The notes under the pieces were generated by a model. The model made no database searches. It saw only the letters and a program-made list of their open reading frames with translations, and was not told the DNA's origin. From NCBI RefSeq assembly GCF_054482595.1, contig NZ_CM137008.1: a stretch of DNA of 64,000 bases. The stretch is one strand, 5' to 3'. Shown piece after piece: positions 39,142 through 39,992 of this stretch (position 1 is the first letter of the stretch; each line of letters opens with the position of its first letter). Position numbers and translations under genes: made by a program.

Positions 39142-39285
39142 TGGATGATAAAAAAAATAATTCCCGCCGTAGTCTGTTTGTTGCTTTGTAGTTGCACGAC
39201 CTTTCCGCAAGCTGTCGCTCCGGTAAACGGTGATGCCTCCAATTAGTTGAATTAAGGATATAATACTCGCTTTTAAGGTTGTTTC

Positions 39286-39558
39286 ATGGTCACAGTTAAC
39301 CTTCATTGTCCCCGTTGCCAGTCCGTTCAGGTTTACCGTCACGGGCAGAACCCCAAAAGACATGATCGATTCCGCGGCCGTGACTGTCACCGGGTATTTC
39401 AGCTCAGTTACTGTTACGAGCCCCGTAAACCGGGAGTTAAAGACCAAATCGCTGAAATGGCTTTCAACGGTGCCGGGGTTCGCTATACTGCCCGTACGCT
39501 GAAAATCGGCATTAATACAGTCATCCGAACTTTAAAAAACTCTCGCCACGAAGAATAA
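39286..39558 (+). CDS. insA: IS1-family InsA-like protein (zinc-finger/HTH)
   Basis: 90 aa MVTVNLHCPRCQSVQVYRHG... with CPxC...C..H and C-terminal HTH (TARTLKIGINTVIRTLKN), about 45% like classical IS1 InsA; ends just after TTTAAAAAAC slippery motif (39531..39540). Confidence 0.8.
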   Translation: MVTVNLHCPRCQSVQVYRHGQNPKRHDRFRGRDCHRVFQLSYCYEPRKPGVKDQIAEMAFNGAGVRYTARTLKIGINTVIRTLKNSRHEE

Positions 39559-39992
39559 CGTCATCCCCGGTCGCTCATGCTGATGTGGCACTCATCTGCG
39601 AACTTAGTCAGCAATGGAGCTTTGTCGGCAGTAAAGCGCGACAGCACTGGCTCTGGTACGTGTACAACACGAAAACTGGTGGTGTTCTGGCCTACACTTT
39701 TGGCCCCCGGACTGATGAAACCTGTCGTGAATTGCTGGCGCTGCTTACCCTTTTACCATCGGCATGTTGACCACTGACGAATGGGGTAGTTACGCTAGAG
39801 AGTTACCAAAGGAGAAGCATCTGACTGGTAAGATTTTTACTCAGCACATTGAGCGTAACAATCTGACCCTGAGAACCCGAATCAAACGTCTGGCCCGCAA
39901 AACCATCTGTTTCTCGAGTTCTGTAGAACTTCATGAAAAAGTCATCGGTGCTTTTATCGAAAATATATGTTCTACTAATTGGAGTCATCACC
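39540..39992 (+). pseudogene. insB: IS1-family insB transposase ORF, disrupted by a 1-nt frameshift
   Basis: InsB-like sequence is split between two frames: ...ALICELSQQWSFVGSKARQHWLWYVYN...ELLALLTLLPSAC* (frame of 39585) and ...LPFTIGMLTTDEWGSYARELPKEKHLTGKIFTQHIERNNLTLRTRIKRLARKTICFSSSVELHEKVIG (frame of 39764); switch occurs at C-run 39748..39750. Confidence 0.7.

Follow-up and report, generated by a model that had tools for sequence, protein, structure and literature searches.

The window, by which we mean the whole 64,000-nucleotide stretch of DNA analysed here, is part of an E. coli chromosome and carries a defective insertion sequence (IS) of 764 bp between yiiX and the remnant of an Rhs element, RhsF. 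Around this site, the window and strain XH990 differ at 2 of 12,764 bases, and the PGAP annotation of XH990 was transferred to the window at an offset of +33228. The features of the locus are as follows.

38533-39141: yiiX (XH990 PGAP annotation)
39145..39228, plus strand: 5' stump of a TIGR02117-family gene, 28 codons (MIKKIIPAVVCLLLCSCTTFPQAVAPVN), cut by the left IS end
39229..39992, plus strand: whole IS1H-type element (IS1 family), 764 bp, with ends set by alignment to intact 766-bp copies
39229..39251, plus strand: left terminal inverted repeat (IRL), GGTGATGCCTCCAATTAGTTGAA, aligning with the IRL of intact relatives
39286-39978: IS pseudogene (XH990 PGAP annotation)
39286..39558, plus strand: insA ORF, 90 aa, zinc ribbon and helix-turn-helix; open, with Gly at the conserved zinc-finger Cys31
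39531..39540, plus strand: TTTAAAAAAC, the A6C -1 programmed frameshift site joining insA to insB', conserved in intact relatives
39541..39750, plus strand: insB' segment 1, in the -1 frame relative to insA, ending at the shortened C-run 39748-39750
39751..39963, plus strand: insB' segment 2 (…GMLTTDEWGSY…QHIERNN…VIGAFIE), displaced by a 1-base loss and ending at the shortened A-run 39960-39963
39964..39978, plus strand: last five codons (YMFY and TAA) in the third frame, with the stop inside the right inverted repeat
39970..39992, minus strand: right terminal inverted repeat (IRR), GGTGATGACTCCAATTAGTAGAA, near-complement of the IRL
39993..43188, minus strand: RhsF remnant adjoining the IS, opening with a 55-bp spacer
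40048-40371, minus strand: dsORF-f3 (XH990 PGAP annotation)
40373-41407, minus strand: Rhs C-terminal fragment (XH990 PGAP annotation)
41414-42550: ISEc1/H-rpt pseudogene with an internal stop (XH990 PGAP annotation)
42684-43076, minus strand: Rhs N-terminal DUF6531 fragment (XH990 PGAP annotation)
From 43189, beyond the RhsF remnant: conserved rpmE terminator, rpmE and then priA
43455-43507, minus strand: L31 ribosomal protein leader (Rfam RF03157, 60 bits) upstream of rpmE, ordinary and expected

To the right of the IS, RhsF (40373-43076, minus strand) has been split and partly deleted by the ISEc1 (H-rpt) pseudogene. In O157:H7, the adjoining Rhs gene has its full length of 4185 bp, so that the IS borders a complete RhsF element on the downstream side of that element. 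The Rhs gene bears the PGAP name "rhsC", although the ORF next to it is called dsORF-f3. A full-text literature search for RhsF together with IS1 returned nothing relevant. An Rfam scan of 38400-43700 gave no known RNA family inside the IS, the L31 leader upstream of rpmE being the sole match.

A preliminary description of this DNA had proposed a divergent IS1-family element with terminal inverted repeats, an InsA ORF and the TTTAAAAAAC motif, all of which we could confirm at 39229-39992. The two terminal repeats match at 21 of 23 positions, and the inverted-repeat pattern occurs at only 2 places in the 64-kb window (0.00 expected from shuffled sequences). The size of 764 bp compares with 766 bp for the intact relatives and 768 bp for IS1A. 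Once the reading frame is restored, the product has 231 residues and matches the Pfam families DDE_Tnp_IS1 (PF03400, E 2.7e-69), Zn_ribbon_InsA (PF03811, E 2.2e-18) and HTH_Tnp_IS1 (PF12759, E 1.3e-25); in addition, the restored protein scores 248 bits against the NCBIfam model transpos_IS1 (NF033558, IS1 family transposase), for which the cut-off is 100. Repeats, length, the joining of insA and insB' via A6C, and domains are thus all those of the IS1 family, and 39229-39992 is a defective member of that family and not a non-member. What is absent from the window copy is a continuous InsAB' frame with an intact DDE triad and intact zinc ligands. In a live copy, the insA product, with its zinc ribbon and helix-turn-helix, would bind DNA, and a -1 slip at A6C would fuse insA to insB' to give the 231-aa DDE transposase InsAB', which would act on the 23-bp repeats. 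The roles of the zinc finger, helix-turn-helix and DDE motif in IS1 are summarised in PMC12903888.

The element belongs to the IS1N/IS1H clade. In the record of strain XH990, PGAP gives the exact allele of the window the generic label "IS1 family transposase, frameshifted", and a 100% identical copy is present on many E. coli chromosomes. The isoform name IS1H, which we use provisionally, rests on the more specific PGAP label "IS1-like element IS1H family transposase, frameshifted", assigned to locus copies with 99.1-99.7% identity to the window copy. Reports of "IS1H" in E. coli genomes are routine, and ISfinder-based tools such as MobileElementFinder use the name for this divergent isoform (PMC3032704; PMC10383658). 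In K-12 papers, on the other hand, "IS1H" is the canonical IS1 copy at flhDC in MG1655(Seq) (EcoGene 3.0; PMC3531124). The name therefore covers two different things in the literature, and reports need to be checked against sequence. The K-12 copy near fecI was also considered as a candidate for IS1H and was rejected, as it is IS1F with the insB7 pseudogene, a different isoform.

The InsB-like reading runs in frame 0 up to 39750 and in frame 2 from 39751. The proposal that one base has been lost at 39748-39750 is borne out by the alignment: the run is CCC in the window and CCCC in the intact 766-bp relatives (ACCCTTTT versus GCCCCTTTT, with one base gone), and over a longer stretch TTACCCTTTT in the window aligns with TTGCCCCTTTT or CTGCCCCTTTT in the intact relatives. 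An intact homologue with the same C3 run, which the preliminary description had named as a possible refutation, was sought, and the intact homologues have C4. However, inactivation by a single-base loss, as originally suggested, is too narrow an account: the C is indeed lost, but an A loss, Asp108Ser and Cys31Gly are present as well. The A-run at 39960-39963 is A4 (GAAAAT) in the window versus A5 (GAAAAAT) in intact copies, and this second 1-base loss removes the normal C-terminus and stop and displaces the last five codons (39964-39978). The end of the PGAP pseudogene, the TAA at 39978, is consistent with displaced last codons. The first catalytic (DDE) residue, Asp108, is replaced by Ser (AGT, 39606-39608), so that the window reads AGT CAG (Ser-Gln, 39606-39611; ELSQQW) where intact copies read GAT GAG (Asp-Glu; ELDEQW). 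The zinc-finger residue Cys31 is Gly (GGC, 39376-39378, versus TGC in intact copies). Both Asp108 and Cys31 are kept in 25/25 other sequences of a 26-sequence alignment that covers the clade and classical IS1. In addition, the conserved and nearly invariant Arg188 is replaced by His (39845-39847) in the window copy.

Lesions that are predicted to be disabling thus number at least four, the C-run loss included, and the window copy, to judge from its sequence, is non-autonomous and cannot make its own transposase. Non-autonomy had been thought probable before, and it does not hang on one base. Restoring the C alone would yield no transposase, since the catalytic Asp and the normal C-terminus would still be missing. 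A crude branch-specific count gives 13 synonymous and 15 non-synonymous changes, which is suggestive only, as the branch partly predates inactivation.

Two related copies lie at other sites. A 92%-identical copy at another chromosomal site in 14EC017 (L007 1501-2263) has CCC at the same run and other indels but keeps A5; either slippage recurs at the C-run, or the C loss predates the A loss. On plasmid pUTME-13 (L006 ~1813), a 90%-identical copy has lost one T of TTTAAAAAAC (TTAAAAAAC) and contains internal stops; this clade member, too, has decayed.

Some sequencing chemistries often miscount homopolymers, and the C-run lesion changes the length of such a run by a single base. The C3 could hence be a sequencing or assembly error in an element that is truly intact and autonomous, a concern that the preliminary description had raised itself. 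Genome-wide counts by short-query BLAST make the probability of this practically negligible. Complete E. coli genomes with the exact 54-nt C3 stretch number 2159 and were assembled independently by many laboratories on many platforms, while the C4 version of the stretch has 0 exact full-length matches among complete genomes. Moreover, the A4 run, Asp108Ser and Cys31Gly would remain, and these are common to the nine full locus copies that we aligned base by base.

These nine chromosomal copies (drawn from different lineages, among them O157:H7, O157:H16-like and several other strains) all lie at the yiiX locus, and the four lesions are common to 9/9. About 40% of sequenced E. coli have the fossil at this very spot; in ~2170 genomes, a single copy occupies one fixed site, which argues against recent mobility. 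Variable sites among the nine locus copies comprise 7 synonymous and ~19 non-synonymous changes. Within insA, which is open in 8/9 copies, the numbers are 2 synonymous versus ~10 non-synonymous, and GF43 contributes a nonsense codon to the latter. With n = 9 only, the decay of the locus copies looks neutral.

These data also bear on whether the element might still function, with extra programmed frameshifts at CCCTTTT and the A-run. CCCTTTT does resemble a slippery heptamer, and one programmed -1 shift is already typical of the family. However, the incoming codons are ACC CTT TTA, so that the heptamer is not in the X XXY YYZ phase, and the intact relatives need no additional shift. The residue at the catalytic Asp, which is Asp in the 25 other family members, is Ser, and the locus copies mostly gain non-synonymous changes, together with one stop codon. 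With a single copy at a fixed site per genome, there is no sign of the variant transposing. We see next to no chance that the extra frameshifts are real.

Alternatively, the relic might have been co-opted, with the open insA providing an InsA-like repressor that damps incoming IS1H/IS1N, or with the element supplying regulatory signals for the Rhs/dsORF side. InsA is a known repressor that binds IS1 ends (PMC12903888), insA has stayed open in all but one of the nine copies, and the relic is kept in ~40% of genomes. Nevertheless, we consider co-option very unlikely: Cys31, a Cys in the 25 other family members, is Gly in all locus copies; the variation in insA is predominantly non-synonymous and includes the nonsense codon of GF43; and the persistence of the relic is accounted for by linkage to the Rhs haplotype.

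Two further arrangements were observed at the locus. The UTME-4 copy (L017 202-957) is a mosaic: its segment corresponding to ~39358-39747 has the alleles of the intact relatives (GCCCC and the Cys codon among them), and 12 bp are deleted (39716-39727). In the search with the C4 version of the stretch, it is the one record whose match reaches 55 bases. The pattern suggests gene conversion from another IS1H/IS1N-type copy. In records H67-H69 (e.g., NZ_CP043334.1 4535384-4536923), the relic is split into two pieces that together span 1540 bp and enclose an "IS1F family transposase"; the 776 additional bp suggest that a classical IS1 has entered the fossil and duplicated ~8 bp.

The flanks of the element differ from those of a simple insertion. 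The preliminary description had found no target-site duplication, and we find none either, the 9 bases on the left being CCGGTAAAC and the 9 bases on the right CTTCTGATG. Its suggestion that the IS marks a rearrangement boundary is also upheld, in that the TIGR02117-family gene on the left reaches codon 28 without continuation and the DNA on the right belongs to the Rhs downstream region. In strain MS14386, positions L009:9000-9200 are collinear with window 39028-39228 (98.5%), and the gene is intact there (624 bp, 207 aa). The window matches this gene only to 39228, i.e., to codon 28, which is the exact left IS end. After CCGGTAAAC, the intact gene reads AATGACTTTGCAGGT, and it continues AATGACTTTG… past the cut point. 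The rest of the gene (550 bp, L009:9201-9750) is absent from the window, including the DNA to the right of the IS. The stump itself has a lipoprotein-like signal sequence (MIKKIIPAVVCLLLCSC…).

The distribution of these arrangements was followed among 5426 E. coli genomes. The TIGR02117 gene is whole in 288 of them (including MS14386 and C41(DE3) of the E. coli B lineage), between yiiX and rpmE; ~2170 complete genomes have only its first 87 bases, cut at the same base; and in the remaining genomes the gene is absent. The junction between the right IS end and dsORF-f3 is identical in 2168 genomes. K-12 has no IS copy at the locus and lacks 39143-43188, with 12 bp instead. In the comparisons with K-12 and MS14386, all three haplotypes converge at the right boundary, 43189, at the rpmE terminator. 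The yiiX-rpmE gap is thus a three-haplotype hotspot. The joined flanks of the IS are contiguous in 0/5426 genomes, and so there is no pre-insertion allele of that form; likewise, we found no genome with both a whole TIGR02117 gene and RhsF.

An old simple insertion would not need a rearrangement junction if the target duplication had decayed, and the element is indeed old enough for its flanks to have mutated. This explanation is highly improbable, however, because the remaining 550 bp of the TIGR02117 gene are missing, the right flank is Rhs downstream DNA and the flanks are joined in no genome. Between strains, moreover, the flanks are 98.5-100% conserved, which makes the decay of 9 bases implausible. 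The data support the view that the IS marks a rearrangement junction. This junction arose once and is old, given that the same base is cut in ~2170 genomes and the same right junction is present in 2168. Most likely, an IS1-type adjacent deletion took place after insertion into the TIGR02117 gene, or two copies recombined; either event would remove the rest of the gene together with the original target duplication. As a third possible route, the IS may have arrived together with the Rhs DNA. Since no ancestral arrangement with both the TIGR02117 gene and Rhs was found, adjacent deletion and arrival with the Rhs DNA are indistinguishable.

We are therefore confident that 39229-39992 is an ancient IS1H-type fossil between yiiX and the RhsF element, inherited vertically and spread by recombination, and no observation speaks against this reading. 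The lesions, the fixation across genomes and the structure of the junction that underlie this reading are direct observations. The copy as such is a known entity: the IS type is catalogued, the copy is defective, and thousands of public genomes already have it annotated as a frameshifted pseudogene. The practical consequence is that IS-typing reports of "IS1H" in ~40% of E. coli genomes refer to an immobile fossil and not to an active element. In addition, the fossil and the truncated TIGR02117 gene together provide a clean marker of one of the three yiiX-rpmE haplotypes.

A related transposase supplied in trans could still use the relic as a substrate. Such use is conceivable because both terminal repeats are nearly intact, and trans action of IS1 transposase on the ends of other, immobile copies has been demonstrated (PMC12903888). 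In SMN152SH1, the DNA changes right after the last IRR base (…CATCACC followed by ACAGG…; L014 3764/3765, corresponding to window 39992/39993), and dsORF-f3 and part of rhs are deleted from the IS end. SMN197SH3 (H309), represented by a BLAST row only, which stops at the IS end and overlaps an Rhs feature, appears similar. The sequence of SMN152SH1 looks like the product of an IS-end-mediated adjacent deletion. A deletion that ends precisely at an IS terminus is a transposase signature and, as this copy makes no transposase, the enzyme would have come from another element. By no other route could the locus amount to more than a fossil. An entry from the protein search (P0031) is an intact 231-aa IS1-clade relative, and SMN152SH1 may encode such an intact IS1-clade transposase elsewhere. 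The conversion in UTME-4, if it came from a live relative, would show that the fossil is still exchanging sequence with active copies. On balance, we think it unlikely that the fossil is a live substrate for IS1N/IS1H-clade transposases acting in trans and, with that, a standing hotspot for deletions into the Rhs toxin locus.

Among known systems, IS1H in the sense of ISfinder, PGAP and MobileElementFinder is of the same size class as the window element (764 bp). The nearest intact copies are those of 766 bp on Salmonella enterica plasmid pSA20083530.1 and Escherichia marmotae plasmid pEM148, with 94.4% and 94.0% DNA identity to the window, respectively; at the protein level, the restored product is 92-93% identical to the intact plasmid copies. 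Both share the inverted repeats, the A6C site and the gene layout with the window copy, but differ in having C4, A5, ELDEQW/EPDEQW and Cys31, and their annotated transposase is uninterrupted. On pEM148, where the element matches at 3 sites, the copy examined is bordered by an 8-bp target duplication (TGGTAAGT); for these reasons, it is probably active.

Classical IS1 (IS1A/IS1R of K-12, 768 bp) shares with the window element 23-bp repeats starting GGTGATG, insA and insB' with the A6C -1 frameshift, the zinc ribbon and helix-turn-helix, and the DDE_Tnp_IS1 domain; the window repeats can be aligned with those of IS1A, which starts with the same GGTGATGC as the IRL of the window. The two are nonetheless far apart in sequence. 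The identity between InsA and its classical counterpart, earlier put at about 45%, was measured at 36% (33/91) against K-12 IS1A, with 40% (93/232) for the restored InsAB' and ~61% at the DNA level, and the window copy is dead. IS1N (the iso-IS1 of S. dysenteriae and the Klebsiella pneumoniae complex) is closer, being of the same clade and having a 231-aa InsAB' and the same architecture. However, IS1N copies are intact and multi-copy, whereas the window copy combines 13-15% protein divergence with four disabling lesions. With IS1N-family transposases of Shigella dysenteriae and Klebsiella, the restored protein shares 85-87% identity, and the plasmid copies annotated "iso-IS1n InsB" have 86% DNA identity to the window copy. 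The best IS1N-labelled proteins, at 85-86% identity to the restored protein, fall short of near-identity, and by these sequence comparisons the window element is of the same clade as IS1N but a different isoform.
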